From the IMG/VR virus record IMGVR_UViG_3300047189_000007, positions 1 to 51,436 of that record: a stretch of 51,436 bases of DNA, one strand, 5' to 3'. Position numbers and translations under genes: made by a program. This stretch comes from a virus (Duplodnaviria > Caudoviricetes). The notes under the pieces were generated by a model that ran no database searches, had not been told where the DNA came from, and saw nothing but the letters and a program-made list of their open reading frames with translations. Below are positions 15,325 through 44,477 of this stretch, piece after piece; positions within the stretch are counted from its first letter, which is position 1, and each line of letters starts with the position of its first letter.

Positions 15325-16803
15325 ATGGAGGTTAATAATTCAGTTGTACTGAAGAAACTCCGTCAATGGCGCGATGATGCAGTGCTCTTTGTGAATGAAG
15401 TCATCCTCATAAACAAGCCTCATATACACATCTCTTCGCAGCAACATCAGATGTTAGAGGCGTTGCCTAATGAGAAGAGGATTTCCATTCGCTCCGGACA
15501 TGGAACTGGTAAAGATGGTAGTGCCTCTTGGGCCATCTTATGGTTCATGTCCACTAGGATATTTGCTAAGGTGGTGTGTACCGCACCTACAGCACGGCAG
15601 TTGAATGATATCCTCTGGAGCGAGATTGCCAAGTGGCTGAGAGGCAGCGCCATTGAAGATGAATTCGTCATGCAGAATGACAAGATCTTCAAGAAGGAAG
15701 CACCGAAAGAATGGTGGGCAAGAGCGGTATCTCCTTCGGTGAGGGCAGATCCTTCGGATCAGGCAGAGACGCTGGCTGGATTCCATGGGGATCATCTTCT
15801 TATCGTCGTTGACGAAGCATCTGGGGTCGAGGACCCAGTATTTATTCCGATCGAAGGAGCTTTGACACAGGAAGATAACCGAGTCCTCCTGATCGGGAAC
15901 CCAACTAAGAATAAAGGGTACTTTCATGATACGCAGTTTCACTCGGAGATATCGAAGCAGTGGTTCAAGTTACATTGGGACTCTCGAGACTCTGAGATTG
16001 TTAAACCTGAGTATCCGACCTACATGGCTACGAAGTATGGAGTTGACTCCAATGTCTTTCGTATCAGAGTGGCAGGAGAGCCGCCCCTCGAGGATGCCAG
16101 AACTCTTATTCCTCTGTGGTGGGCAGAGCAGTGTATTGGGAAAGAGATTACAGTAGAGGATGAGGAGCCCATCTACCTGGGCGTAGATGTCGCCAGATTT
16201 GGTGAGGATAAGAGCATCATCCTCCCGAGACATGGACTCCGTGTCCTACCTTGGCTTGGCTTCCAGGGAATGAATACAATCACCTTAGGAGGTCACGTCC
16301 TCCAGACATACGAGGATGTTAATGCAGATGGATGTGCAATCGACGTTATTGGGATCGGAGCCGGTACAGCTGACTGGCTTCGTAAACAGCGAATGCCCGG
16401 CCTCTTCGACATCAACGTCAGCTGGGCGTCCAGTAACCCACTTAAATATGCACTGCTTAGGGATGAACTCTGGTGGCGGGTACGAGAGAAGTGCATGTAC
16501 GGGTACTACAGTTTCCCGATGGATAAACTTCCAGGGGAGACTCTCTCACTCGGGCAGGAACTAGCGAATGAGTTATCATCTCCATTCTATGAGTTTAACA
16601 GGAATGGTGCTGTGAAGGTGGAGGGCAAGAAGGAGATGAAGAAGAGGAGTGGTATGCTCTCACCTAACATTGCAGATGCGCTCTGTATCACGGAGTTCTT
16701 CTATAATGTAGCTTCAAAACTCTTCGTTAAGAAGAACAAGCCAAGGAAACCTCTCCCTGGATCTGCTACGGATCTAGGCGCTGATGCATGGCAGGTGATG
16801 TGA
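15325..16803 (+). CDS. terL: Terminase large subunit
   Basis: Walker A SGHGTGKD, Walker B IVVDEASG, LIGNP coupling motif, RNase H-like GVDVARFGED and SPNIADAL. Confidence 0.95.
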   Translation: MEVNNSVVLKKLRQWRDDAVLFVNEVILINKPHIHISSQQHQMLEALPNEKRISIRSGHGTGKDGSASWAILWFMSTRIFAKVVCTAPTARQLNDILWSEIAKWLRGSAIEDEFVMQNDKIFKKEAPKEWWARAVSPSVRADPSDQAETLAGFHGDHLLIVVDEASGVEDPVFIPIEGALTQEDNRVLLIGNPTKNKGYFHDTQFHSEISKQWFKLHWDSRDSEIVKPEYPTYMATKYGVDSNVFRIRVAGEPPLEDARTLIPLWWAEQCIGKEITVEDEEPIYLGVDVARFGEDKSIILPRHGLRVLPWLGFQGMNTITLGGHVLQTYEDVNADGCAIDVIGIGAGTADWLRKQRMPGLFDINVSWASSNPLKYALLRDELWWRVREKCMYGYYSFPMDKLPGETLSLGQELANELSSPFYEFNRNGAVKVEGKKEMKKRSGMLSPNIADALCITEFFYNVASKLFVKKNKPRKPLPGSATDLGADAWQVM

Positions 16804-24601: not shown

Positions 24602-24626
24602 GCAATGTCAAAAAATGACATTGATT
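24602..24626. repeat. Dispersed palindrome, copy 6 (upstream of the portal gene)
   Basis: GCAATGTCA AAAAA TGACATTGATT. Confidence 0.9.
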
Positions 24627-24642
24627 GTATAAAGGAACAGCC

Positions 24643-26607
24643 ATGAATTATACTGAGTCTCCGTCCTTTGGACAGGTAGCTGGTACAACAGATCGTGATA
24701 TTGCTTTACTGGATAAGATAATGAAGTGGCTTCAGCATGCTGAAGGTTCTACCAGTGAATCAAAGTGGTTAACTGTATCAGAGGAAGACTATGACTTCTA
24801 TGCTGGCGATCAGGATACTGCTGCTGTTAAAGCCAAGTTAACAGATGAAAAAAGACCTATTCTTGTGTATGATGAGATCAAGCCTAAGGTTGATGTTGTT
24901 ACTGGCCTAGCTGGTCAGAACCGTCAGTTGCCTTCGGCATTTCCTACTGAGAAAGGAGATGCTGCAATTGCAGAAGTTGTTAATAACTCTATAAAGTTTT
25001 TCAGGCGAGAAACTAAGTTTGGAGATAATGAGCTTGTATGCTTTGAACATACTGTCAAGGGTGGTAGGAGTCTTCTGTATTTTTATATAGATGATGAAAA
25101 CCCTTTTGAACCAAGAATCAAATCAAGATTCGTACATGGCAGAAATTTCAAGCTCGATCCTCGAAGTGTTGAGTATGATATGTCTGATTCCAGATTTTTG
25201 TTTATAGATTTCTGGTATGATAAAGATGAGATCAAGGTTAAGTATCCGGACTTTGATCCTGAGTTAGTGACACAGTTACAGTCCTCAGACGGATCATCTC
25301 CTACATTCTATAATTCTGTAGAAGGAACGTATCGTGTAACGGAGTGCTGGTACAAACAGACAGAACCTGTGATGTGGGTTACTAATCCTGTGACAAAGCA
25401 GCATGAAAAGGTAAGTGTAGCACAGTACAACCAAATGAAGCAAGCACTCTCTGTTGGCTTTACAATGCCTGATGGATCAGTGTTGATTGATCCTGAGTTC
25501 AGTGGTATTAAGCGTTTCGCTACAGTATATAAATATGTCATCTTCTCAAACTACTTTATCTTTGAGAAAGGGACTAGTAAATTTCACTGGGAAGGATTTC
25601 CAGCTATTCTGTTCGGAGCGTTTAAGAATGATAAGGAGAACAGATGGTTTAGTTTGATTACTCTTATGAAAGATCCGCAGAAGGGTATCAATACTATGAG
25701 GAGACAGATGCAGCATCTGTTACAAACATCTCCTAAGGGAATCTTAATGCATGAAGTTGGTGCTATTCTTAATATTGATGACTACGAGAAGAAGTCAGCT
25801 GAGCCTAACTTTCATCTTGAGATAGCTCAGGGATATATGGAAAAGGTGAAGTTTACAGATCAACCTACGATATCTCCTGTGTATGGACAGTTAATGCAGG
25901 AGGACAAACAGTTTCTGAAGGATATATCAGGTATTCAGAATGATACCTTGGGTATTCAGACTTTCTCAAGGGAGCCTGGTATTACCACACAGTTGCGACA
26001 AGGACAGAATATTGCCATTCTATTCATTTTACTTGATAACTTCAAGAAGAGTAGACTGCGTGGAACAATGCTGATGTTCTCTTTGATGCAGCAGTTTGTT
26101 ACAAGTGAGAGATTAATCAGAATTGAGGGTCCTGATACTGAACAGTTGATGTCAATTAACTCTCAGACAAATCCTAACGTCGCAGGGTTTAATGATATTA
26201 CTCTTGGGAAGTATGACTTCTATGTTGAAGAGGGAATAGAGACAGTCAACACAAGGAACTCAATTGCACAGATGCTGATTGATTTGTCTCAGAATAATCC
26301 AGGATCTATTCCTCCTGACATTATTATTGAGTATAGTGGAGCACCCTTCAGTGTCATACAGAAGATAAAGCAATACTCCGAAGGAATACGGAATCAACAG
26401 ATTCAGATGGAACAAGCAAAGGCGCAAGCTGAGAAAGAGCTTGAGGAAGCAAGGCTTGAGAATCAGCGTTATATTGCGGTGGTTAATAACCTGACTAAGC
26501 TTATTGTATCTGACAAGACTATTGATGGAGACTTATTGAAGACATTGATGTCTAGTCTGCAACAGAAGCAAGTCGCACAGATGAAAGGAGACAAAGGAAA
26601 TGCCTGA
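24643..26607 (+). CDS. Portal protein, P22-like
   Basis: EEDYDFYAGDQ, KDPQK.IN, GKYDF.V motifs and C-terminal coiled coil; precedes scaffold and capsid. Confidence 0.85.
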   Translation: MNYTESPSFGQVAGTTDRDIALLDKIMKWLQHAEGSTSESKWLTVSEEDYDFYAGDQDTAAVKAKLTDEKRPILVYDEIKPKVDVVTGLAGQNRQLPSAFPTEKGDAAIAEVVNNSIKFFRRETKFGDNELVCFEHTVKGGRSLLYFYIDDENPFEPRIKSRFVHGRNFKLDPRSVEYDMSDSRFLFIDFWYDKDEIKVKYPDFDPELVTQLQSSDGSSPTFYNSVEGTYRVTECWYKQTEPVMWVTNPVTKQHEKVSVAQYNQMKQALSVGFTMPDGSVLIDPEFSGIKRFATVYKYVIFSNYFIFEKGTSKFHWEGFPAILFGAFKNDKENRWFSLITLMKDPQKGINTMRRQMQHLLQTSPKGILMHEVGAILNIDDYEKKSAEPNFHLEIAQGYMEKVKFTDQPTISPVYGQLMQEDKQFLKDISGIQNDTLGIQTFSREPGITTQLRQGQNIAILFILLDNFKKSRLRGTMLMFSLMQQFVTSERLIRIEGPDTEQLMSINSQTNPNVAGFNDITLGKYDFYVEEGIETVNTRNSIAQMLIDLSQNNPGSIPPDIIIEYSGAPFSVIQKIKQYSEGIRNQQIQMEQAKAQAEKELEEARLENQRYIAVVNNLTKLIVSDKTIDGDLLKTLMSSLQQKQVAQMKGDKGNA

Positions 26608-27478: not shown

Positions 27479-27493
27479 GTGGAGGATGTAGCT

Positions 27494-28543
27494 ATGCCCG
27501 AGAATCCTAAAACTCAGATGCTCACAAACGACAACCTTACTCGTAAGAAGTGGGCACGAGATTTATTCAGTGTTATTCTGCCGTCAGTGGAGATCAACTC
27601 ACTGGTCGGTAAAGACTCAAACTCCATTGTTCAGTTGAAGACTGAGCTTGGAAAAGGCGAGGGTGATCAGATTACCTTCGGTATCAGACTTCCCTTGGTC
27701 GGAGAAGGTGTTGTCGGTAACGACACTGTCGAAGGCAATGAAGAGAAACTGCGCTTCAAAGACTTCAAGATGACCATCGAAGAACTCAATCATGCGGTTG
27801 ATACAGGTGGCCGTATGGAAGAGCAGAGGATTCCTTACGACCTGATGGCTGAAGGAAAGAACGGTTTGCAGGACTGGTGGGTTGCAAAGCTCAATGCCTA
27901 TCTGATGGCCGTTCTCTGCGGCGATACATCATATGCCATCGTCGCAGGAAAGACCTTCGGCACCACAATCACGGCGCCTGATACAGACCATCATATCCTA
28001 GCCAACGATGTAGCAGAAGCCTCAATGACCTCGGCTGACACGATGGATCTTACCATGCTGGACAAGATGAAGCAGCAGGCAGAGATTCCGGCAGAAGGAA
28101 GTTTTAAACTTCGTCCGCTTGCTTTGGGCGGGAAGAACTACTGGAGAGTCATCCTCCATAACTTTGTGTTCGATCAGCTTCGTCAGAACACCAACGTCGG
28201 CCAGTGGGGAGATCTGCAGAGAGCTGCCGGAAAGCTCCAGGTTCCCAACACGGAGATTGAGTACAACGGTATGCTCATCTCCAAGAGCGAAAACATTCGG
28301 AAGTCACCTTCCAATGCCAACGTTTACCGGAATCTCTTCCTCGGATGCCAGGCTGCTGTGTGGGCTTGGGGTGGGGCAGGAGAAAGCAAGAGCACCACGA
28401 TGGCCTTCGTTCCGTACACCAAGGACGCGGAGCGCTTCGTGATGATCAGGGGAGGCGGGATCTTCGGAGCAGCGAAGCCCATCTTCGCAGGCAAGGACTA
28501 CGGTGTGATCGTGGGTAGTGCTTGGGGTGCCAGAATCGCATAA
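27494..28543 (+). CDS. Major capsid protein (N4 gp56/DUF4043-like)
   Basis: ELGKGEGDQITFG..L.GEGV.G...EGNEE.L; RNLFLGCQA..AWG; DYGVI. Confidence 0.9.
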   Translation: MPENPKTQMLTNDNLTRKKWARDLFSVILPSVEINSLVGKDSNSIVQLKTELGKGEGDQITFGIRLPLVGEGVVGNDTVEGNEEKLRFKDFKMTIEELNHAVDTGGRMEEQRIPYDLMAEGKNGLQDWWVAKLNAYLMAVLCGDTSYAIVAGKTFGTTITAPDTDHHILANDVAEASMTSADTMDLTMLDKMKQQAEIPAEGSFKLRPLALGGKNYWRVILHNFVFDQLRQNTNVGQWGDLQRAAGKLQVPNTEIEYNGMLISKSENIRKSPSNANVYRNLFLGCQAAVWAWGGAGESKSTTMAFVPYTKDAERFVMIRGGGIFGAAKPIFAGKDYGVIVGSAWGARIA

Positions 28544-28955: not shown

Positions 28956-29747
28956 ATGTATCTGATTGATTACAGACGTATGGATCAGCGAACCAATGTG
29001 TTGGAGAATCCCTTCTGGCTTACTTCAGCACTCATCAAAGGTGTCGATGTGCAGGCGGCTGGCCCGAGCCATACCATCACTGCCACCGACATCTCAACAA
29101 CCAGTGGAGCTCCTGACAGTATTGATGGAGTAGCTGCTGGTTTCGTTGCGGCAGGATTCTCTGTTGTTGGAGATCCTATTGCAGTGTCAGGTTTCACCGG
29201 CGCAGGTGCGGCTATCACTGCAAACAACAGGTTACACACTTCCAGTTCAATCGCGGCAGGAAAGGTTGAAGTTGTCGAAAGCGACATCATCTCCGATGCT
29301 GCAACGGAAGCTGTCACCGTGAGCATTCCTCGTGGACTTGTGCTGTTCTCCTTCCCTGTGTTGGGGAGACGGTACATGATTCAGGAATGCCAGTTGCAGT
29401 TGATCGAGGCCTTCACAACCAATACCCAGATCTACATTGGGCTTGGCACAATTGCGACTGACCTCATTACCACAGGTGGGTTGATGGTCAACTCTGACTT
29501 CAACGCTTATTTCAACAACACAGACATCACCATTGCTACGCCTGCATACTACGGCCCGACAAGTTCCACGTGGTACACCGCTGCAGGTCTGTGTGGATCT
29601 ACGTCACCTCGCGTTATCACAGGAGCAGTTGCAACAGTTCCCGTGATCTATGCCATCGTGATCAACTCCACTAACGCGGCTCCGGCGGCAATTGCTGCAG
29701 GTCAGTTCAGACTGCATCTCCAGATTGCCATTGTCCCTGGTAAGTAA
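28956..29747 (+). CDS. Putative virion decoration protein
   Basis: Ala/Thr/Gly-rich, capsid operon. Confidence 0.55.
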   Translation: MYLIDYRRMDQRTNVLENPFWLTSALIKGVDVQAAGPSHTITATDISTTSGAPDSIDGVAAGFVAAGFSVVGDPIAVSGFTGAGAAITANNRLHTSSSIAAGKVEVVESDIISDAATEAVTVSIPRGLVLFSFPVLGRRYMIQECQLQLIEAFTTNTQIYIGLGTIATDLITTGGLMVNSDFNAYFNNTDITIATPAYYGPTSSTWYTAAGLCGSTSPRVITGAVATVPVIYAIVINSTNAAPAAIAAGQFRLHLQIAIVPGK

Positions 29748-29748
29748 C

Positions 29749-29773
29749 AATCGACGTCAAAATTTGACATTGC
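29749..29773. repeat. Dispersed palindrome, copy 7 (intergenic)
   Basis: AATCGACGTCA AAATT TGACATTGC. Confidence 0.9.
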
Positions 29774-29787
29774 TGTGGGGTGTCATC

Positions 29788-30420
29788 GTGAATTTAAGTG
29801 AGATAAGAACATCCATTACCGATACAGTGCAGGAGAAATCTGAAACGTTGATTGACTCTGTTGATATCAGAATCAATGCAGCGTTATTGGAAGTAGCAGA
29901 AGAGCATGACTTATCATCGTTGAAGCGAACTTTTGTTGCGACGACTGTGATAGGTCAGGCCTTCTGTAATTTTCCTGCTGGCTTCTCTGGACGCCTATCG
30001 TATGCTGGTACAGCAGATGGACAGTTAAAGCAGTTTAATGGTGGTATAGATGAGATGATTCTTACCTACCCAACACTAGCTGAGACTGGAGATCTAGAGT
30101 CTATTGCTTCTGAGTATCCAGTTCTTTGGTACCAGAAGATTCCAGCTGTAGCAACATTGATAACCTGTATCGGTTATGCTCTGCCATCACCTCTCTTATT
30201 GGAGGATGACATCCCCACAGATATTCCGGCACACTTACATGAGGGTCTGCTTGTGAATAAGGTTCTCATTAACTACTATAATAAGATTGAAGATGGAGTT
30301 GAAGGCGTGAAGGTAAACACTAACAACTACATCATGCTGTATTCAATAGCTCATAACCTATTGCTGAACTGGATATCCAGACGGCGATCCAACGTAGGTC
30401 GGAGTGTGTGGGATGCCTAA
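29788..30420 (+). CDS. Putative head-tail adaptor
   Basis: GTG start NLSEIR; RINAAL and DIP..IPAHLH patterns; position. Confidence 0.6.
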   Translation: MNLSEIRTSITDTVQEKSETLIDSVDIRINAALLEVAEEHDLSSLKRTFVATTVIGQAFCNFPAGFSGRLSYAGTADGQLKQFNGGIDEMILTYPTLAETGDLESIASEYPVLWYQKIPAVATLITCIGYALPSPLLLEDDIPTDIPAHLHEGLLVNKVLINYYNKIEDGVEGVKVNTNNYIMLYSIAHNLLLNWISRRRSNVGRSVWDA

Positions 30421-31795
30421 GCCAATCGAAATACCCAACTTTGTTGGAATGAATGATGTTAAGACAGCAGAAGGATTCTTCACTGAGAAGGATGCAGCTG
30501 AGCCTAGTGCGATTCTTAATGCTGATGTTGATATCAGAGGTAGGCTGGTAAGAAGACCAGGAAAGACTCGGCTTGTGTTACTACCACATGCACATAGTCT
30601 TTGGGCTGGCAACTCATGCATGCTGTGCTGTGCTGATGGTGTTCTGTATGATATACAGGGTGTCATTGCTACAAGTGTTGGAACAACTGGGATTGATGCT
30701 CCTTTGTCATATGAAGAAATTGATGATTTGATTTACATTTCCAGTAAGTACTGGAATGGCATCTACAGTCATGTGACTAAGGCAATAGCATCATGGGGTG
30801 TTGCACTGCCTCCTAGTCCAGTACTTCTTCCGGCAGTCGGCAGTCTACCTGCAGGCTACTACCGTGTCTGTATGACCAATGTAGTTGGTTCTGAGTTATC
30901 TGGTAATGGATTAATCTCTACGATAGAGCTAACATCCGTTGGTGGAATTCAAATACTTAACCGTCCTGCTGGAGCGATTGTCTGGTGTACTGACCAGAAT
31001 GAGGGTATATTCTATAGAGTTGGAGCAGTTGATGTAATTGCTGATATTCCATCTGTGGAACCTCTACCTTCGTTTATGTGCAGTCCTCCTCCGTATATGG
31101 ATAATCTCTGCTATGCTTTTGGTTTGCTGTGGGGATCGGTAGATAATATCGTCTTCTACTGTCAACCATATAAGTACTCATGGTACAAACCTACAACTAA
31201 CAGATTTAAATTTGACTCAGAGGTTTCTATCATAGCTCGAGTACCTACAGGATTATTCATTGGATGCCTTGAGAAGACATCTTTTCTAGCTGGTACAGAA
31301 CCTGCTAAGATGCAGCAGTCATATGCAGGTACAGGATCTATACCAGGAACCTTGGTATACTGTCATAATCTTCCTGAGCTTGGAGATATACTTGGTACAA
31401 GCGAGAAAGGATATGTCAGTGTTCCAGTATGGAGGACACTTGATGGAATCGTTGCAGGAAACGCAGGAGGAAGGTTATTCAACTTGTCGAAAGATAAGTT
31501 ACGACTTGATACAGTTGAACGCGGCGCATCACTGTACACTAATGTCGATGGGACATTTAAGTTTCTTACCAGTGCCAAGCGAGGACACGGAGGAAGTGCA
31601 GTTGGTGTACTTAATGCGGTTACGGCTGCCTTGTTTGCGAGTGGAAAGATTTCTCAGTCTGAGTTTGCTCATCGCGGTATGGGAAGTACACAATCAATCA
31701 GAGATACCGCAATATGTGATCTCAATAAGTATTTTGCCAGAACTGAGGAAAGTTCGATGTCATTCGAAGACGAGGTCACATGTGAGTTATTATGA
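30413..31795 (+). CDS. Putative tail nozzle/stabilisation protein
   Basis: F.GMN..NADVD..G.L.RRPG start, beta-propeller-like; follows the adaptor. Confidence 0.55.
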   Translation: MPKPIEIPNFVGMNDVKTAEGFFTEKDAAEPSAILNADVDIRGRLVRRPGKTRLVLLPHAHSLWAGNSCMLCCADGVLYDIQGVIATSVGTTGIDAPLSYEEIDDLIYISSKYWNGIYSHVTKAIASWGVALPPSPVLLPAVGSLPAGYYRVCMTNVVGSELSGNGLISTIELTSVGGIQILNRPAGAIVWCTDQNEGIFYRVGAVDVIADIPSVEPLPSFMCSPPPYMDNLCYAFGLLWGSVDNIVFYCQPYKYSWYKPTTNRFKFDSEVSIIARVPTGLFIGCLEKTSFLAGTEPAKMQQSYAGTGSIPGTLVYCHNLPELGDILGTSEKGYVSVPVWRTLDGIVAGNAGGRLFNLSKDKLRLDTVERGASLYTNVDGTFKFLTSAKRGHGGSAVGVLNAVTAALFASGKISQSEFAHRGMGSTQSIRDTAICDLNKYFARTEESSMSFEDEVTCELL

Positions 31796-32424
31796 GTATA
31801 ACTTTTTCGATGGAGGACTTGAAGATGTTTAAGAAATTTGGAGTTAAGCTGGACGTGTTTCGAGATTCACCGCTTATCAGATATGCGGTGAAGCATATTC
31901 ACGAATCACAGTTCCGGTTCCACGGTCTGGTGTGTTGTGAGCACTTCCGGAATGGAATCCTTCTGTCTGGTGGATGGGAGCCCAAAGTAAACACCTTTAC
32001 CACAGAAGGCATGGCAAGACTGCTGAACATCGTGTTCAGGGCTCAGGCAACTGAGGCTGCTATATACGTTGGTATCTTCAAGAACAACGTAACACCTGCT
32101 GTTGGTGACACTGCAGCAGTGAAGCTCGGTGCGGCAGGTACGTATGGAGAGTGTCAGGATGCTGACTATGACTCTCCCGCTACTGACAAGCCTGCATACA
32201 CAATGGCTTCAACGTCAACAGCAGTTGCAACAAATGCGGCATCCAAGGCAACGTTTGTGATGAATGCGTCGATTACTGTATACGGTGCATTCCTTTCAAC
32301 AGCGGCTGCAAAGACTGCTGTGTCAGGAACACTGTTCTGTGGTAAGAAGTTCACTGCATCTCGTTTAGTTATTGCTGATGATGAGTTAGCAATCACGTAT
32401 CAGATCATGTGTACAACTGCGTAG
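31792..32424 (+). CDS. Putative tail protein
   Basis: NTFTTEG..LL and ITVYGAFL patterns; start uncertain (31792 or 31825). Confidence 0.55.
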   Translation: MSITFSMEDLKMFKKFGVKLDVFRDSPLIRYAVKHIHESQFRFHGLVCCEHFRNGILLSGGWEPKVNTFTTEGMARLLNIVFRAQATEAAIYVGIFKNNVTPAVGDTAAVKLGAAGTYGECQDADYDSPATDKPAYTMASTSTAVATNAASKATFVMNASITVYGAFLSTAAAKTAVSGTLFCGKKFTASRLVIADDELAITYQIMCTTA

Positions 32425-32433
32425 GAGTTTACA

Positions 32434-33300
32434 GTGCCGAAGTTAAACTTCACTAACATAGGTGATCTTCAAGATTACAGGTACTCAGTGGCAACTATCG
32501 CGTCAGTAGATACTGCCACTGATACCTGTATCTTAAGTAATGGAAAAACAGCATTATTATTTTATCACTGACTTGCTGACGCTCCATTGCGTGACAATGG
32601 TGCAGTGTTAGGCGCAGCCTTAGGATTTACAGATAATGATCAGGTTGTTGTTTTAACAAAGTATGACAACTCTAAGTGTTATGTTGTCGCGCATGTTGAT
32701 GGGATTAGAAGTTGTGGAGAGGATCTTATACTTTGTTCAAATGCTCCGTCAATTGGCGGAGTAACATTGGTATATAGCGGCGGTCTTGACTTATTGTCGA
32801 ACCAGACCTCAGTTGCTCATATTGATGGAGAAGTCGTCACTGGACTTATTACTCCCGCAACTCATGTATATGCTGGACCAGATTGCATACCTGGATGGCA
32901 TAAGCTAATTGGTACTTGGAGTGGTCATGTTAGTGTAAGTTATTCCGGGAACTCAGGGAGTCCACTACCTAATTACCATGCTGGCGGAGGTGCCTCTATT
33001 ACAGTATTTGGTGGACAGATGTACGCAAAATCTGCTAGTATAGATGTTGGATTTGACGGAGTACCACGTGAAACAGATGTGATAACTGGATTCCACTTAT
33101 CTGGTACGTATACTGCTTGTATACAGATTGGTCCTGGAGATGAGGTATTCTCGTGTGGTGCTCATGGCGGTGCTAGTTCCTCCTTTTCAAGTCCTGGTGG
33201 TGCAGCAAGTGCATCTGCTAGTGCTCATGTAGCATTCAGTGTTTCGTTGTTTAGAGTTCCACAAACCTTAGTTAATGATGGACCTTGGTATTCTTTCTAA
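32434..33300 (+). CDS. Putative tail/spike protein with in-frame TGA at codon 46 (candidate selenocysteine or readthrough)
   Basis: AGGAG RBS, GTG 32434, open to FYH-TGA(32569-32571), then the same frame continues to 33300; hairpin directly after the TGA. Confidence 0.65.
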
Positions 33301-33312
33301 GAAGGTGTTAAT

Positions 33313-35340
33313 ATGCCAGTCGATGATGTAAACAGTATTGTGCTTTTACACTTTAATGGAAGTGATACGTCCACTTCGTTTATAGATGAGAGTGGAAAAG
33401 TATGGACAGCTTACGTTAATGCCCAGTTAGATACTGCTAAGAAGAAATGGGGAACTGCTGCCGGGTTGTTCGATTGGGGCGGACCGGACTATATAGATAC
33501 TCCATATCACGCAGATTTTAATATTGGCAGTATGGACTGGACGATTGACTTACAAGTACGCTCCGGAGTTAATCTTGGTTATGCTTATCCAGTATTTGTT
33601 AAAATTGGAGATGGCTTTGCTGGTGGAGAAGATGTAATTTCTGTTGAGTATTTCTTTGGTGATGGTGGAGATAATAGAATAGTTGTTTCGATTGATGCAG
33701 TTTATTATTACTTTGTTGTTGATCAACTTTTTATGACAGAGGATGCATGGCATCATGTTGAAGTAGTAAAAGTTAATAGTACTAACTCTTTGTATCTTTT
33801 TATAGATGGTACACAGATTGGTGCTGCACAAACATCAGTTGAGCATCCAACAATATCTGGTGGAGTACAAGTTGGAAGTGGTGTTGATGGTTCACTTGAC
33901 GAACTTCGTATCTCCAACATTGCAAGGCATACATCAAATTTTACTGCTCCAATAGCCGAGTACCCTGCTGGTGCATTACCAGATCCTGAGTTTTATGAAG
34001 AAACTATTGAAGATACTATTGATATTGCTGACTATCCTACATTCTACATGGAAGAAAGTATAGATGATAGTGTAGAATTTGGAGAGATTATATCTGAGTA
34101 TTATCCAGAGAGTATTGATGATCCGCTTACCACAATGGATCGTGTACTTGGGCAACCTGCTGCACCTGGAACTGCGAGTCTCGTTGATGGAGAGAATGAA
34201 GATACCATCGATTTTGCAAGTGCATATAGCTTAAGGTTATCATTAACAGAGAATGAGATACTCAATATTATAGATACAATGCATGCAGTATGGGACAGAA
34301 TATTACTTGACTCATTCTTTATGTACGATACCATTCTGCAAGGATGGCATTTTACTATTACAGACTCTCTTATTGCTACTGATGCAGCGGCAAAGAGTCT
34401 TGGTATAGCAGTTAGTGATATTCTGCGATCTATTGATACTGCTGATAATAAATGGGATGGTACCGAAAGTGTTATTGATATACTGATAACAATCGATGAG
34501 TCTGATGGAGTTAAGTTTATCCTAAGAGCCATTGACGAAAGTCTGGTGTTAACAGATGTAGTTAGAGTAAGTCTTGTTATGTTAATGCTTGATATACTAG
34601 ACTTCACTGATGTTTTAGTATCGAAGGATACAGTGAATCTAGTAGACACACTTACTTTTACATCTGATGCATATGCAGTATTGCACTTTCTGCTAAACAG
34701 TCTACTTGATCTTGATGACGGAGTTACTGAGACTCCACTGTTTAATGATCTCATTGCTGATAGTTTAACAGTGACTCCAGTGGTGCTTAGTACGCCAACA
34801 CTAAATCAGGTAGTGATAGAGATCGCATCATTTGAGGATGTATCTGCAGCAAGCGGCCATCTGTTTTCTTCAGTTGCAGATGGAATTAAGTTATCTGTTC
34901 TGGTAGATCTTGATGATGAAGTGTACGAGTGTTGGGTACTTAATACACCAAGGTTTCATTCATCCATCTACTCAGGATTTGACTTTAACTCATACTGTGT
35001 TTTTGAAGGTCGCGCGTATGGTGCTAACAAGGATGGCATCTATGAGTTATCAGGTGACACTGATGATGGTGCCTCGATTCATGATGGGGTGATCCTAAGC
35101 AAAACTACATTCGGGCTTGCTCAGTCGAAGCGACTGCGTAAAGCATACCTTGGTGTTACTGGCGGAACGCCAATAATGGTACTTGAAGTAGAGGATGGAA
35201 CACGGAAGGTATTTACCATTACTGACTCTGATACCATCCAAGGTGACAGGGATGTTAAAGGTAGACACTGGAAACTATCCTTAGCAGAATTTGATTCACT
35301 TGATTCAATTAAACTTATTCCTATGGTGCTTGCGAGATGA
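33313..35340 (+). CDS. LamG/concanavalin-like tail fibre with acidic repeat stalk
   Basis: LLHFNGSD, DWTID, WHHVEVV, LFIDG, LDELRISN.ARHT.NFT; Asp-periodic middle. Confidence 0.75.
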   Translation: MPVDDVNSIVLLHFNGSDTSTSFIDESGKVWTAYVNAQLDTAKKKWGTAAGLFDWGGPDYIDTPYHADFNIGSMDWTIDLQVRSGVNLGYAYPVFVKIGDGFAGGEDVISVEYFFGDGGDNRIVVSIDAVYYYFVVDQLFMTEDAWHHVEVVKVNSTNSLYLFIDGTQIGAAQTSVEHPTISGGVQVGSGVDGSLDELRISNIARHTSNFTAPIAEYPAGALPDPEFYEETIEDTIDIADYPTFYMEESIDDSVEFGEIISEYYPESIDDPLTTMDRVLGQPAAPGTASLVDGENEDTIDFASAYSLRLSLTENEILNIIDTMHAVWDRILLDSFFMYDTILQGWHFTITDSLIATDAAAKSLGIAVSDILRSIDTADNKWDGTESVIDILITIDESDGVKFILRAIDESLVLTDVVRVSLVMLMLDILDFTDVLVSKDTVNLVDTLTFTSDAYAVLHFLLNSLLDLDDGVTETPLFNDLIADSLTVTPVVLSTPTLNQVVIEIASFEDVSAASGHLFSSVADGIKLSVLVDLDDEVYECWVLNTPRFHSSIYSGFDFNSYCVFEGRAYGANKDGIYELSGDTDDGASIHDGVILSKTTFGLAQSKRLRKAYLGVTGGTPIMVLEVEDGTRKVFTITDSDTIQGDRDVKGRHWKLSLAEFDSLDSIKLIPMVLAR

Positions 35341-39587: not shown

Positions 39588-42500
39588 ATGCCGTACTTCA
39601 GACCTAAAGACACTGGTCCTGACTTTGTAGATATGTTGCTGCAGAAGAAATACTCTTCAATGATGCAGCATGAAGATCTTAAGGATAAACTTCTTAATGA
39701 TCCCACCTATAGCGATCATGTACTTGCACGACTAAGTCGTTCGGCAATGACTGATAAAGCTGCGGCTAAAATGCCAGAGGGTGCGAGCTTTGAAAAGGCT
39801 ATGTCTGCTATTGATCAAGGTGATCCTCGTAAGTCAATGCTTATGCAACTACAGGCTGATATGCCTTCAATTATTAAGTCCAGTCCATACGGAGTCAATC
39901 CTTCTGAGACAATCATGAAGAGTGTCCAAGAGCGTTCTGGTGCATCAAAGGAAGAGATATACAAGTACATCCAGAAAAACTCTGGAATGTTTGGCAAGGA
40001 TGTTGCACCTGAAGCTGGGTATGAAGAGTGGGCAGGAAAGAATCCTGGCATGACAGGACCTGGAACAGCCTTTGCTATGGGCGCAGGTGGTCAGCTTGCA
40101 TCTGAAGGCATACAGAAATTTGCTGGATCTCGTATGATGACTGCACTACCCGCAGCAGCCAGAGTACTTGGAATGGTTGGAAGAGGTCTATCATTTGCTC
40201 CTCCTATTCCAGGAATTGGTATGGCAGCTAAACTTGTAGGTGCTGGCCTTATGACTATACCTGCAATGCTTGCAACTGATGTGGTGAAGAAAGCTGCTGC
40301 TGGTGCAGGTTATGAGTTTGGAGGTAGTGCTCCTAAGCAGCTACTTGAAGAGCTTATAACTGGTGCTCCTGGTTTTATCGGAGTCAACAAGCTTGCTGGA
40401 ATGGGAGTTGCCAAAGGTGCTGCGAAGCTTGCTTCATTGAAAGAGGGACTTAATATCTTTGGTGATAAGGCTGTGTCATCTGCTGCAACTAAGGGAGTGA
40501 GTCGGGAAGATATCACTGCTTTGAGTACAGCTATGCGAACAAAGGCAGAAGCAGAGGCCTTTAGTGTTGCTGAGCATGCAGCTAAGATAGAGAAGTTCAG
40601 TCAACCTACAATGGAAGATATGATTGCAATACAGGCGAATCCTGAGAAGCGAGTTGAGATTATCAAGGCTCGATTGCAAGCAAATCTTACTGAAGAGGTT
40701 GCTACTACGCAAGCAAATAAGGAGATGCTTGATAAGAGAATCATTGAGAGGGCTGACCAGCTCAGAGCAAATGATTCTACTGTATCTCCTGAAGATGCTG
40801 TGATCAGATCAAAGCGTTTGCTTTCTCCGTCTCAGATAGAGACCAATGCAGACACTGCTGTTATGCGTCAGCATGGAATGTCAGATGAGAGGATTGCTCA
40901 GTTTATGCCGGCAGAGCGCGCACAGTGGGCAGATGAGCTTAACAGGACAAGGGGTGGACAACTTGTTGCCAGAGAGAATCTGGATCATATGCTGCCTAAG
41001 CCTGTCCCTCCTGAGTCTATGCCTATCAGGAATACTCTTAAGCTACAGAGGGAAGCATCTGTCATTCGTGCTGAAGCACCTGAGCGACTTGGGTTACCTG
41101 CAACAGGTGAAGCTCCTCTTACAAGGACTATCGAGCAGAAACTTGGAGAAGCCTCCGGCAGGCTTCAGACAGCAGCAGAAGGTACTGGTGTAGTGGGGAA
41201 GATGACCACAAGCGGATCTGCAAATGAGAGTGTACTTGCAAGACTACAAGCACGAGCTCGCGGAGAAAAGGTTCCTACAACTGAGGCTCCTAAGACTTTT
41301 GCACAGCAAGCTAAGGAGCTCAATATTATATACAATGGCCCCCAGGAATGGCCACATAAACCTGGTACACCAAAGCGTCCTCCGATACAGTACTTTACTG
41401 ATAAGATTACAGGATCTACTTTTGGTGTAGAAGAGGGTGATGATATAGTTGCGAACTTAACAGACATGCGTAAGAAGTTTGGTGTTGTTGCAGATGTAAT
41501 CAAGACCAGCTCAGTAGCTCCGGCAGCAAAGGTTGAGCCAGTAGTAGCAAGCTTTGCTGATAGAGCTGCTCGCATTGTGCAAACTGTTGATGAAGAGCTT
41601 AAAGCAAGTGTAGCATCTATCAGCAAGCCAAGAGCACACATCGACAAGATTAATCTTGTTGTTGTTAAGGCTAAAGATGAGCTTACAATGCTTGCCAACA
41701 GGATGGATATTACTAAGAGCAAGCGAGAGTTCTATGACAAAGCAATAACGGAGCTTGATCGGAAGTTTAAAGATCCTACGGCTGGCTTGGAAGATGCAGC
41801 AAAGGTAATGCGAGATGAGGAGACTGGTGTTCTTGCTTCTACTAATACTCCTAAAGGTAGAGATGTTGCTAGAGATATGGCTGCCAACATGGACATGCTT
41901 GATGATGAAGCAAGAGCTACATTAGCTGCTGGAAAGAAAGCAGAATGGCAACAAATCTTTGGAAAGAAAGGTAAGGTAACAGCAGAGGATGTTAATGCTA
42001 ACAAAGAGAAGCTTCAGAAGTGGTATGATAAGTGGCAACCAATGAAGCAATTTGGTATTCCTGCCATAGCAGGTGCTGCTCTCATTCCAGTTGCCTCAAT
42101 GCTATCACCTGAGCAAGCAGAAGCTGCTCCGTTCAAAGGTACGTTTGTTACCTCTGGTGTGAAGAGTCTTATCGAAAGCTCTGGCAAAGCAGTTGAGGAA
42201 ATGACGCAGAAGTTTATTGATGCTGGTTTTGGTTCGATGAAGTTATCTGAGAACGGCCATACCATCGAGAGACTTATGGTTGGGAAGTCTTTTGCTCCTG
42301 CATCACCAGATGTGTTCGAGAAGACAAGACCCATGCGCTTCATTGATACACTGGCATCATATCACACTCGACAAGAACTGCATATGCGAGCACAATATGC
42401 AGATGGAACGAAGGCTCCTTATGGTATAGGCACTGAGCTTGGTGATAGGAGTCAGGTTATCCAGAACAATATCAGTGGTACATTGAAGGCTGTTACAAGT

Positions 42501-44477
42501 ATCCTGAAGGATAATGGTATCACTGGTGATCTTCAAGCCGTATCCGATGAGATGCTTCCTCTTGTACAGAAGTACCACAAGCAAGTTAACCTTGAGAATC
42601 CTTACTATCAAGGCAGATTGGCAATGCTAGAGCAGGTCTTGGAAGGTAAATATAGCAGCATTGCTGATACAAAGATGAGAGATCTCAGTAAGATGTTGAA
42701 GATAGCAGGAAAGGATGTGAGTAAACTTGCTCCGGAAGATAAGGCTTACTATGATCTTATCATGGGTGAGAAGCAGTCTATGATGGACAAGATAGCAGGA
42801 CTGAAGCCTGATATGGATGCTTTCAATACAGAGATTGATACTGTATATAAATCGCTTGCAGCTAAACATTCATCTTCCAGAGTAGCTCTTGCTGCAGATG
42901 GTGTTGGTATGACTGATGCTGATCCTTGGCTTCGGAATATGCTAGCTCCTAATGAGCGAATCGCCGTTGATGAGATCACTGCAATAAATCGCACCTATGG
43001 AGTGCGGATGCAAGAGACAGGACATGATGTCATAGCTGGTCCATACATGCATCATCCTGCACATCCATCTGTTGACTACAGTGCAGATCTAAAAGATCTT
43101 GAGAAGATTGCATCTGATGGTGCGGATGCCATGCGTCTAGTAAACTTCTTTCACAGACAGTCAGGAAGTAAGCTTATGATTCCTGATGTCGGATACGTGA
43201 TGGGTAAGTATGTACCTGATGCCGCAAAGCGTATTGAGATATCTGACATGTGGAAGATGGGCAAGGAAGGTGGATGGGATTTCATTCGTAAGCAGATGCA
43301 AGCAAGAGGTGGGTATGAAGGAGCTCTTAAGCTTATTGATGATGTGCGTACTGCTTTTGATCCCATCGATGTTGGCGGCAGCGCTAAGTGGATCAATCGT
43401 TATGCTGCTTTTGAAGTAGCAAGATTACTTACACTGAGTCCTTCAGTATCATTCAAACATGCACTGAAGTTGATGGGTAACTGGACAATCTTTCCTACAG
43501 AAGTAAGTGCCAAAGCAACAGGAGAGAATATGTCACTCTTTAACCGGCGCCTAGCGCAAGACTTAGCTGGTGAATCATTCAAGGGAAAGGATAATGTAGT
43601 AGATCTTGCGAGGGCTTACACCGATCAATCTCATATCTATGCAGCTGTGTCTGATATGGCTCCTTATGAGTTGCCTACAAACATATATGATAAGTTCATC
43701 ACCAAGTGGAACGAGGGCGGATCTGTACTGGTCAACGGTGTTGAGAGATGGGATAGAGGACAGACCTTCATCTCCGCTATGATGATGTCCCAGAAGAAAG
43801 GGATGACTCCTGATCAGGCACGCTTTGCCCTTATGGATTCAGTTCTGAAAGTAAACTTCCTCACAGGACCAAACAATCCCAAGTGGTTGAAAGATCCTAT
43901 GGTAAGAACGATGCTTCTGTTCCAGGGAACACCATTCAAGATCCTTGAACAGCGAGCCATGTTAGCTTATCAAGGTGGCAAGGATATTAAAGCAGCCGGA
44001 GTAGAATTACTCAGACAGCTTCGCGCGGATGTTAAGATAGGCGAGGAGAGATTCAAGTTCAACTTGTTGAAGGATGAGCTCACAAAGAGTAAGGATGTGT
44101 ATGGTACTGCCTACTCATCTCAACTTCTGAAGCAGATGATGGTACTTGGCACCGTGGTCTACACAGGTAAGACTGTATTTGACTCAGATCTATGGGGTCA
44201 TGCCTTCCATGTACCAGGTATAAAGATGGGTGAGAAGGGAGCACAGTTAGGATTCAATCCAATCGTTGCTTCTACTTGGCAGACATTGTCTGGTGGGAAT
44301 AAGAAAGATGATGACGAGTTTTGGATGTCAAGATTCCTTGGTAGTTGGTTAACAGGAGGAGGGACTCCAGCCATTGTGAACAAGATGCTCAGACTTAACA
44401 ATGATGATGTTCCTGAGATATACAAAGAGAACAAACTTAACTACCTATTTGGAGTGCCAAAGACCAAGGATAAGTAA
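39588..44477 (+). CDS. Large internal virion/DNA ejection protein (1629 aa)
   Basis: Last gene of the structural arm, Ala/Gly-rich hydrophobic segments, helical; typical podovirus position. Confidence 0.6.
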   Translation: MPYFRPKDTGPDFVDMLLQKKYSSMMQHEDLKDKLLNDPTYSDHVLARLSRSAMTDKAAAKMPEGASFEKAMSAIDQGDPRKSMLMQLQADMPSIIKSSPYGVNPSETIMKSVQERSGASKEEIYKYIQKNSGMFGKDVAPEAGYEEWAGKNPGMTGPGTAFAMGAGGQLASEGIQKFAGSRMMTALPAAARVLGMVGRGLSFAPPIPGIGMAAKLVGAGLMTIPAMLATDVVKKAAAGAGYEFGGSAPKQLLEELITGAPGFIGVNKLAGMGVAKGAAKLASLKEGLNIFGDKAVSSAATKGVSREDITALSTAMRTKAEAEAFSVAEHAAKIEKFSQPTMEDMIAIQANPEKRVEIIKARLQANLTEEVATTQANKEMLDKRIIERADQLRANDSTVSPEDAVIRSKRLLSPSQIETNADTAVMRQHGMSDERIAQFMPAERAQWADELNRTRGGQLVARENLDHMLPKPVPPESMPIRNTLKLQREASVIRAEAPERLGLPATGEAPLTRTIEQKLGEASGRLQTAAEGTGVVGKMTTSGSANESVLARLQARARGEKVPTTEAPKTFAQQAKELNIIYNGPQEWPHKPGTPKRPPIQYFTDKITGSTFGVEEGDDIVANLTDMRKKFGVVADVIKTSSVAPAAKVEPVVASFADRAARIVQTVDEELKASVASISKPRAHIDKINLVVVKAKDELTMLANRMDITKSKREFYDKAITELDRKFKDPTAGLEDAAKVMRDEETGVLASTNTPKGRDVARDMAANMDMLDDEARATLAAGKKAEWQQIFGKKGKVTAEDVNANKEKLQKWYDKWQPMKQFGIPAIAGAALIPVASMLSPEQAEAAPFKGTFVTSGVKSLIESSGKAVEEMTQKFIDAGFGSMKLSENGHTIERLMVGKSFAPASPDVFEKTRPMRFIDTLASYHTRQELHMRAQYADGTKAPYGIGTELGDRSQVIQNNISGTLKAVTSILKDNGITGDLQAVSDEMLPLVQKYHKQVNLENPYYQGRLAMLEQVLEGKYSSIADTKMRDLSKMLKIAGKDVSKLAPEDKAYYDLIMGEKQSMMDKIAGLKPDMDAFNTEIDTVYKSLAAKHSSSRVALAADGVGMTDADPWLRNMLAPNERIAVDEITAINRTYGVRMQETGHDVIAGPYMHHPAHPSVDYSADLKDLEKIASDGADAMRLVNFFHRQSGSKLMIPDVGYVMGKYVPDAAKRIEISDMWKMGKEGGWDFIRKQMQARGGYEGALKLIDDVRTAFDPIDVGGSAKWINRYAAFEVARLLTLSPSVSFKHALKLMGNWTIFPTEVSAKATGENMSLFNRRLAQDLAGESFKGKDNVVDLARAYTDQSHIYAAVSDMAPYELPTNIYDKFITKWNEGGSVLVNGVERWDRGQTFISAMMMSQKKGMTPDQARFALMDSVLKVNFLTGPNNPKWLKDPMVRTMLLFQGTPFKILEQRAMLAYQGGKDIKAAGVELLRQLRADVKIGEERFKFNLLKDELTKSKDVYGTAYSSQLLKQMMVLGTVVYTGKTVFDSDLWGHAFHVPGIKMGEKGAQLGFNPIVASTWQTLSGGNKKDDDEFWMSRFLGSWLTGGGTPAIVNKMLRLNNDDVPEIYKENKLNYLFGVPKTKDK

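Follow-up and report, generated by a model that had tools for sequence, protein, structure and literature searches.

A probable phage selenoprotein: an in-frame UGA followed by a bacterial-type SECIS hairpin in a tail-module gene

How is an in-frame UGA to be read when it occupies codon 46 of a gene that otherwise runs without interruption through 288 codons of the virion region of a phage genome? The question is raised by the gene at positions 32434-33300 of the IMG/VR virus record IMGVR_UViG_3300047189_000007 (Duplodnaviria; Caudoviricetes), a complete virus record of 51,436 bp with a CheckV completeness of 100%, which was analysed at its full length and is referred to below as the window. 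An earlier note on this DNA, made from the letters alone, had proposed that selenocysteine (Sec) is inserted at the UGA by the SelB and tRNA-Sec of the host, and several lines of evidence now speak for that proposal, among them a Cys column in homologues, the recurrence of TGA at that column, a hairpin linked to it and Sec machinery in host genomes. The gene thus very probably encodes a phage selenoprotein whose UGA would be read via host SelB, a judgement that comes from sequence comparison. The elements of the gene are the following:

32423-32427, plus strand: AGGAG, Shine-Dalgarno-like sequence, 6 nt upstream of the GTG at 32434
32434-33300, plus strand: complete candidate selenoprotein gene, 288 codons plus the TAA at 33298-33300, residue 46 being the UGA
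32434-32745, plus strand: conserved N-terminal domain, residues 1-104, OB-like beta-barrel (alignments, AlphaFold2, matches to OB folds)
32569-32571, plus strand: in-frame UGA, proposed selenocysteine codon, residue 46, at the Cys column of homologues
32576-32611, plus strand: hairpin of the bacterial selenocysteine insertion sequence (bSECIS) type (minimum free energy (MFE) fold; RNAalifold consensus on 11 TGA variants; geometry as in the SECIS elements of host formate dehydrogenase (FDH) genes)
32746-33297, plus strand: lineage-specific C-terminal part, residues 105-288, rich in Gly, Ser and Ala, predicted to be all-beta at low confidence

Re-reading of the sequence returns the frame exactly as the earlier note had described it: behind the ribosome-binding site the GTG at 32434 opens 45 sense codons (MPKLNFTNIGDLQDY...ALLFYH), the TGA at 32569-32571 follows, and the same frame continues to the TAA, so that the read-through product has 288 residues. 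The AGGAG overlaps the TAG stop codon (32422-32424) of the upstream gene. The claim that the downstream part has no convincing ribosome-binding site of its own also holds, as the TTG at 32587 is not preceded by a Shine-Dalgarno-like sequence; in the protein database the gene is represented by a 237-residue downstream piece only (P0002), called from the UUG after the UGA. As to read support at 32571, which the earlier note had named as a check, a Logan contig at a depth of about 99, which comes from the probable source sample, matches positions 31800-33400 of the window letter for letter, TGA included. The contigs from a second study are likewise identical to the window, but they span only 32605-33274, so that the TGA lies outside them. 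The sequencing runs listed as holding window sequence include no RNA dataset.

Which residue do homologues carry at the position of the UGA? From 1.84 billion proteins, a profile of the N-terminal 104 residues retrieved 410 representatives at E <= 0.001, and in the 151 representative homologues that were listed, the window's own two entries not being counted, the column holds Cys in 145 cases, the others being Ser (2), Gly (2), Trp (1) and Ile (1). D30, C32, H45, R53, N55, G56, H87 and C94 are near-invariant as well. In the phage database, the sole relative of the window by DNA or protein is the Methanosarcina virus MetMV, whose 367-residue homologue aligns with residues 1-76 across the TGA, its LLFWH-S-L corresponding to LLFYH-UGA-L. 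The single Trp belongs to a protein of 100 residues (P0029) and is followed by GPDSPLRDNGA, a peptide characteristic of the forms with UGA. The underlying codon may really be TGG, or a gene caller working with a different code may have rendered a UGA as Trp.

A first search for related loci with a single protein query gave no match, and the DNA of homologues was obtained by pattern scans of viral contigs, metagenome contigs and GTDB genomes. The first scan of viral contigs yielded 19 loci, 5 with TGA and 14 with TGY at the column, and a second scan, with patterns that leave the column out, yielded 6 TGA among 25 readable of 26 loci; metagenome contigs gave 6 TGA among 26 readable of 30 loci. 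Both loci found in GTDB genomes carry TGA, one of the search patterns used there favouring the TGA-associated peptide, and they come from two metagenome-assembled genomes (MAGs), of an uncultured delta-proteobacterium (G001) and of an uncultured Smithella (G002). Among 201 genomes of the order to which the Smithella genome belongs, 3 matched, with TGA in G002 and in a further genome, G133, and TGT in G061. Altogether TGA occupies the column in 20 of 72 DNA-readable loci; many loci were the same contigs fetched twice or near-copies, and distinct 63-nt sequences, here called variants, number 11 with TGA vs 24 with Cys. Two later additions, L090 (TGA) and L089 (Cys), bring these figures to 12 and 25, and five loci whose column was unreadable by pattern (L058, L079, L086, L087 and L088) were left out.

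Past the TGA, the frame of each of the 12 variants continues for another 181-627 codons, up to a stop in 9 and up to the contig end in 3. A maximum-likelihood tree of 40 distinct N-domains, built without the TGA column and without the eleven hairpin codons, has the TGA forms scattered. The best tree requires 8 changes of label, of which no fewer than 4 are imposed by branches with good support; as the domain is short and support is weak at many forks, 4 is taken as the safe number. The window itself is sister to a Cys form (L059, support 100/97). Several switches between Sec and Cys thus appear to have taken place among the lineages, at least 4 of them as estimated from the sequences. This bears directly on the explanation that the TGA is a nonsense allele, a sign of a decaying gene, or a sequencing or assembly error in one record, which the earlier note had considered impossible to exclude from a single sequence. 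A single base change turns TGY into TGA, and in the window the codon is confirmed by the contig of the probable source sample only, a point that also weighs against the Sec reading; but 12 distinct variants, drawn independently from viral contigs, from metagenomes and from three Desulfobacterota MAGs, have TGA at this codon, the downstream frames are intact, and the contig of the probable source sample agrees in every letter at its high depth. Recurrence, open frames and scatter on the tree therefore argue against all three possibilities, and this explanation, effectively excluded by the recurrence in independent data sets, is now very unlikely.

Does the RNA next to the UGA look like a signal for Sec insertion? 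In the window, a lower stem (32576-32583/32604-32611, with a UGC bulge at 32601-32603) carries an upper stem of 6 bp, CCATTG at 32584-32589 and CAATGG at 32595-32600, closed by the apical loop CGUGA at 32590-32594, which begins 18 nt past the UGA and has G at its second position; stems, loop and spacing are all as the earlier note had drawn them. When numbered from the U of the UGA, the upper stem occupies nt 16-21/27-32 behind a 12-nt spacer and the loop nt 22-26, with G23 and U24 in the loop. RNAfold returns this hairpin as the MFE structure when nt 7-44 past the UGA are folded (-15.2 kcal/mol, the upper hairpin alone accounting for -4.9). No Rfam family was found on it, either window-wide at E <= 1 or in a search focused on 32540-32660 at E <= 10.

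The consensus bSECIS model, as quoted in a 2026 review, comprises an apical loop of 3-9 nt, an upper stem of 4-16 bp, a spacing of 16-37 nt between UGA and loop, an MFE of at most -7.5 kcal/mol and a G at loop position 1 or 2 with, as a rule, a G or U next to it on the 3' side (PMC13188914). The hairpin of the window satisfies this model, with a loop of 5 nt, a stem of 6 bp, the loop start C-G-U, a spacing of 18 nt and an MFE of -15.2. In the fdhF element of E. coli the upper stem-loop spans nt 15-31, 11 nt from the UGA, with conserved U17, G23 and U24 according to a 2021 review (PMC8659212). The likeness to bacterial elements such as fdhF, pointed out in the earlier note, is thus borne out, since in both cases an in-frame UGA at a Cys-aligned column is directly followed, within the open reading frame (ORF), by a hairpin whose small loop has G23 and U24 at the same numbers. 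The phage element differs in that its upper stem-loop starts 12 nt after the UGA vs 11 nt in fdhF, in having no bulged U17 (C17 is paired), and in its loop, CGUGA vs GGUC. Also, unlike bacterial selenoprotein genes, the candidate lies in a viral virion-structure module and not in a cellular oxidoreductase gene.

As a single sequence the fold is unexceptional, the region 32560-32625 having z = -1.20 with 26 of 200 shuffles folding equally well, and the significance of the hairpin therefore comes only from the comparison with relatives. The sequence UGA-N12-CCR UUG CGU GAC AAY GG, or a near variant, is present in every TGA variant. A complete 6-bp stem at nt 16-21/27-32 is found in 11/11 TGA variants vs 4/24 Cys variants (Fisher 3e-6), and a complete stem together with an NGU loop in 10/11 vs 1/24; of the two variants added later, the TGA form L090 has 5 of the 6 pairs and a CGUGC loop, and the Cys form L089 has 1 of 6 by reading. 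All 12 TGA variants have a loop of 5 nt at nt 22-26, which is of the NGU type in 11, the exception being CGGGC in L053. The invariant Arg of the loop is encoded by CGU in 11/12 TGA variants vs 5/25 Cys variants (Fisher 5e-5), and it is this codon that places G23-U24 in the loop. The bias among synonymous Arg codons may be regarded as the cleanest signal, at the level of sequence, of a constraint on the hairpin. The codon before this Arg, at +6, is UUG in 12/12 TGA variants vs 6/25 Cys variants. The sole variable pair of the upper stem is G-C in 8 variants and G-U in 2; the window, where both wobble bases have changed (CCA...AAU), has A-U. On 11 TGA variants RNAalifold adds lower helices at 11-14/34,36-38 and 7-9/42-44, and in the consensus structure 96.9% of the cells are paired vs 30-60% with slid partners, 3 pairs varying on both sides; in the window the consensus lower helix is replaced by the 8-bp helix in a different register. 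The alignment of homologues that the earlier note had put forward as a check has therefore given Cys in most sequences, TGA in 12 variants and a hairpin that tracks the TGA.

Several observations must be set against this link. Apart from the unexceptional stability of the fold, 7 of the 10 pairs of the main helix never vary, most of the double changes are owed to the window itself, and covariation as strong as that observed was reached by 11-25 of 500 shuffles. Relatedness is not taken into account in the Fisher tests: only 4 phylogenetically independent TGA/Cys contrasts exist, in which the hairpin is concordant in 3.8 of 4 on average and never opposite, corresponding to p = 0.125. L053 lacks U24 and L090 has a stem of 5 bp. 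The hairpin codons encode PLRDNG, and 5 loci in 4 Cys variants (L003, L015, L016 and L062/L064) retain both the peptide and the stem; part of the conservation is therefore at the protein level. Two of these loci, which make up one Cys (TGC) variant on the metagenome contigs of L062 (3133) and L064 (2371), keep the complete hairpin with a CGUGA loop, which looks like either a very recent switch from Sec to Cys or the pre-adapted ground state that gives rise to UGA forms.

The conserved UUG at +6, a possible restart codon in all 12 TGA variants, also counts against Sec insertion and is the main point in favour of a split gene, in which translation would stop at the UGA, releasing a 45-residue peptide, and restart six codons on, the two pieces then assembling. 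The UUG is the first in-frame start after the UGA in every one of these variants, and gene callers annotate the downstream piece from it, as in P0002. It is, however, buried in the 6-bp upper stem with no Shine-Dalgarno-like sequence ahead of it, and it is present in 6 of the 25 Cys variants too. Moreover, the stretch from UGA to UUG preserves the family motif (P/A)D(S/A)P, as do Cys forms that have no hairpin, and its codons thus appear to be translated; and the break would divide one compact barrel, always at this codon and on at least 4 independent occasions. We regard a split gene as decidedly improbable.

Are the cells that carry such genes able to insert Sec? The three bacterial genomes with TGA-bearing relatives all have SelB, at 60.5 bits in the delta-proteobacterium G001, 68.5 bits in the Smithella G002 and 63.8 bits in G133, the Pfam cut-off being 23.2 bits and E. 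coli being the only match among 14 control genomes. By Rfam, tRNA-Sec was found in both genomes examined for it, G001 (77.4 bits) and G002 (52.6 bits), with a model that is not very specific, 5 of the 14 controls passing its cut-off, and ARAGORN reports a tRNA-SeC(tca) in both. In fact, G001 has two ARAGORN tRNA-SeC(tca) genes (L026 and L028), with 77.4 and 51.8 bits by Rfam, of which the second may be a further copy or a look-alike. All three genomes also have molybdopterin oxidoreductases with one in-frame TGA. In four such host FDH genes (L094, L097, L095 and L099) the spacer is 12 nt long, the 6-bp stem lies at nt 16-21/27-32 and the loop at nt 22-26 reads GGUCU, and a fifth host gene (L105, minus strand) is without this stem; the plus-strand rows of L097 and L105 were dropped, their frames being opposite in strand to the Pfam match. 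The phage hairpin and the host FDH SECIS thus share spacer, stem position, loop length and G23 and U24, and with the prophage-borne gene the two occur in the same cell, whereas the loops differ (CGUGA vs GGUCU) and neither the stems nor the proteins are related to each other in sequence.

In G001 the UGA gene (C57:120483-120797) lies on a contig of 188.8 kb on which UvrB, phosphoglycerate dehydrogenase and a Na/H exchanger are found around a block with an SPP1-type portal and a Terminase_3 protein; flanked by cellular genes, the phage block therefore cannot be put down to binning and represents an integrated prophage. Beside the prophage terminase, the same contig (L111, 8627-18391) holds ORFs of 996 residues (reverse-transcriptase-like), 1071 residues and 1038 residues; the 1071-residue one is PLD / SNF2-helicase / Cas3-like, and a defence island at the prophage edge is possible. 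No tRNA-Sec was found in the window or in four other TGA-bearing viral records, three of the four being incomplete, and these phages must therefore rely on their hosts. The records that hold window sequence are labelled as freshwater sediment metagenomes.

These findings also bear on a programmed readthrough independent of Sec, in which a near-cognate tRNA (Trp, Cys or Arg), together with the hairpin, would give a little full-length protein of low copy number. A stop codon with a hairpin downstream is the layout of readthrough signals as well, low-copy tail proteins could profit from such an arrangement, and P0029 has Trp at the column ahead of DSPLRDNGA. It would nevertheless leave unexplained why UGA arose at least 4 times and only on a near-invariant Cys codon, why G23-U24 is kept at a synonymous site and why the geometry copies that of the host FDH SECIS, and all three prophage hosts have Sec machinery. 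We consider it improbable as a mechanism in its own right; a readthrough that sets stoichiometry, which the earlier note had offered as an alternative, is possible as a side effect of Sec recoding.

Regarding the host of the window itself, a number of points weigh against Sec insertion. The window's portal, used as query, has no match in G001, G002 or G133, so the host assignment goes through the shared tail gene only, and a Sec-competent bacterial host is deduced from the SECIS type and the relatives. The earlier note had asked for Sec machinery in the predicted host: among the hosts of related TGA-bearing prophages, SelB is there in G001, G002 and G133 and tRNA-Sec in G001 and G002. In the phage database the window has no relative apart from a Methanosarcina virus; Methanosarcina is not known to be a Sec user, and archaea place their SECIS in untranslated regions (UTRs). 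An archaeal host with a 3'-UTR SECIS was set aside, the element being of the bacterial in-ORF type and the TGA relatives lying in bacterial genomes. Also, the genome with the Cys-form prophage, G061, is SelB-positive, and the choice between Sec and Cys is therefore not simply tracking host capacity.

Could UGA stand for an amino acid throughout the late genes? To address this, the surroundings of the gene have to be considered:

15325-16803: terminase large subunit
24625-26607: P22-like portal
27479-28543: major head protein
29692-30420: SU10-adaptor-like protein
30404-31795: head closure Hc3-like protein
31792-32424: unknown gene, phrog_8123, directly upstream of the UGA gene
33313-35340: Laminin_G_3 / baseplate-wedge-like protein, 675 aa, directly downstream of the UGA gene

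The UGA gene is part of the virion (tail) module, and the other arm of the window encodes PolA-UDG, a ligase, a DUF3987 protein, a PD-(D/E)XK nuclease and a ParB-methylase. Some phages do recode stop codons in late genes, which is what makes a reassignment of UGA to a standard amino acid conceivable; but TGA terminates 17 of the 53 non-nested ORFs of at least 100 residues in the window, the portal and terminase genes among them, no other structural gene requires read-through of a TGA, and the window has neither a suppressor tRNA nor any other tRNA gene. As the earlier note had stated, TGA is an ordinary stop elsewhere in this DNA; with 17 of 53 ORFs ending in it and no tRNA gene, genome-wide recoding is therefore ruled out, and a reassignment limited to the late genes is hardly credible.

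Two side observations concern the neighbourhood. The DNA of the upstream gene (31792-32424) is 68.5% identical over 319 nt (window 32066-32384) to MetMV (MK170447, 20897-21215), and MetMV has the next gene too, with Ser at the Sec column; this tail-gene pair is therefore common to an archaeal virus and to phages with relatives in Desulfobacterota genomes. At the end of the structural arm, an ORF of 1629 residues (39588-44477) has no Pfam family at E <= 0.001 and contains a weak match to the group I intron family RF00028 at 41311-41473 (plus strand; 21.2 bits vs a gathering score of 50, E 0.35), which is probably due to chance.

What kind of protein would carry the Sec? For residues 1-104, AlphaFold2 with a 66-row alignment gave a model with a predicted local distance difference test (pLDDT) of 91.2 and a predicted template modelling score (pTM) of 0.80, in which strands from both sides of residue 46 make one OB-like barrel; the full-length single-sequence model (pLDDT 42) is unusable. 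VIA-align Z scores are 7.0 for IF1, 6.8 for P2 gpV (3qr8), 6.7 for the phiKZ central spike (6orj), 6.0 for the R2 pyocin spike (4s37) and 5.5 for VgrG. Against the PDB, Foldseek returned a best E of 0.018 and no match at E <= 0.001, and in BFVD models of gp5-OB and of the baseplate hub come at E near 0.02, behind a 367-residue protein that is probably the MetMV homologue. Atlas matches (Phage_base_V at 0.84 and DUF2577 at 0.85) serve as leads only. The N-domain belongs to no Pfam or PHROG family, and 66 scanned members have no Pfam match on it at E <= 1, Phage_base_V (PF04717) included. The C-terminal parts differ among members of the family, and residues 105-288 match only the window's own gene call, with no other homologue; in 2 of the 66 members the N-domain is followed by a Peptidase_C93 domain (bacterial transglutaminase-like cysteine proteinase, best E 1.6e-21).

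As in the central spikes of P2 gpV, R2 pyocin, phiKZ, T4 gp5 and VgrG, a predicted N-terminal OB-like barrel is followed by a variable C-terminal part in a protein of the tail module. In contrast to those spikes, the protein hits no Pfam or PHROG family and has its conserved Cys/His/Sec set in the N-domain and not in an apex domain, and the scores are intermediate, level with those for IF1 and other OB folds. The variation of the C-terminal parts and the position of the gene behind adaptor and nozzle-like genes suggest a conserved anchor or spike N-domain that would carry exchangeable distal modules, membership of the gpV/gp5 group not being established. The proposed Sec follows an invariant His, and C32, H87 and C94 are conserved too, from which one may guess that, together with C32, H45, H87 and C94, it would make up a centre in a spike or fibre anchor that binds metal or is redox-active (selenylsulfide).

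The favoured explanation, Sec insertion, can then be formulated as follows. A single continuous gene would encode a virion protein of the tail module, with the UGA at codon 46 decoded as Sec by host SelB and Sec-tRNA(Sec). The signal would be a bacterial-type SECIS hairpin within the coding sequence, made of the 12-nt spacer, the 6-bp upper stem and the CGUGA loop with G23 and U24. A phage that has no tRNA-Sec of its own would depend on a Sec-competent host, probably an anaerobic Desulfobacterota-type bacterium of freshwater sediment, and Sec would take the place of the near-invariant Cys after the invariant His in the compact OB-like N-domain. The insertion itself, the Sec competence of the window's host and the role of the residue are what we infer.

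The mechanism is that of known bacterial Sec recoding; what would be new is its bearer, a virus of bacteria, the kind of protein, which belongs to the virion module and is not an oxidoreductase, the match with the geometry of the host SECIS, and the repeated switching between Sec and Cys. We found no paper on a natural selenoprotein of a bacteriophage in the literature, supplementary tables lying outside the search. A 2026 review of the prokaryotic selenoproteome does not use the words phage, virus or viral (PMC13188914), and the only viral selenoproteins named in the Atkins 2021 review are poxvirus glutathione peroxidases. These virus-encoded selenoproteins belong to molluscum contagiosum virus and fowlpox virus, the latter with its SECIS within the coding region (PMC8310308). 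They resemble the present case in being encoded by a virus and using the Sec machinery of the host, as proposed for the phage gene, and differ from it in that they are antioxidant enzymes captured by eukaryotic viruses and have a eukaryotic-type SECIS, whereas here a protein of the structural module of a bacterial virus would be made with a bacterial SECIS.

If this explanation is true, a structural selenoprotein of the phage particle that is not an oxidoreductase would widen the uses of Sec, phages would copy the recoding signals of their hosts, and standard gene callers would split or truncate such genes. As Sec and Cys forms alternate among close relatives, they constitute natural pairs in which the contribution of Sec can be tested, and the compact 17-nt SECIS core, a 6-bp stem with the loop CGUGA, gives clear predictions for SelB binding. 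More tentatively, and with the balance of probability leaning against it, the whole widespread, unannotated family of tail proteins (410 representative clusters) may use Sec as a working virion residue in a His-Sec/Cys centre, its lineages flipping between Sec and Cys with a SECIS geometry copied from host FDH, so that assembly would be tied to SelB and selenium. Were this so, the UGA would improve the chemistry of the tail and at the same time serve as a checkpoint, of host range or of physiology, in anaerobic communities of syntrophs.

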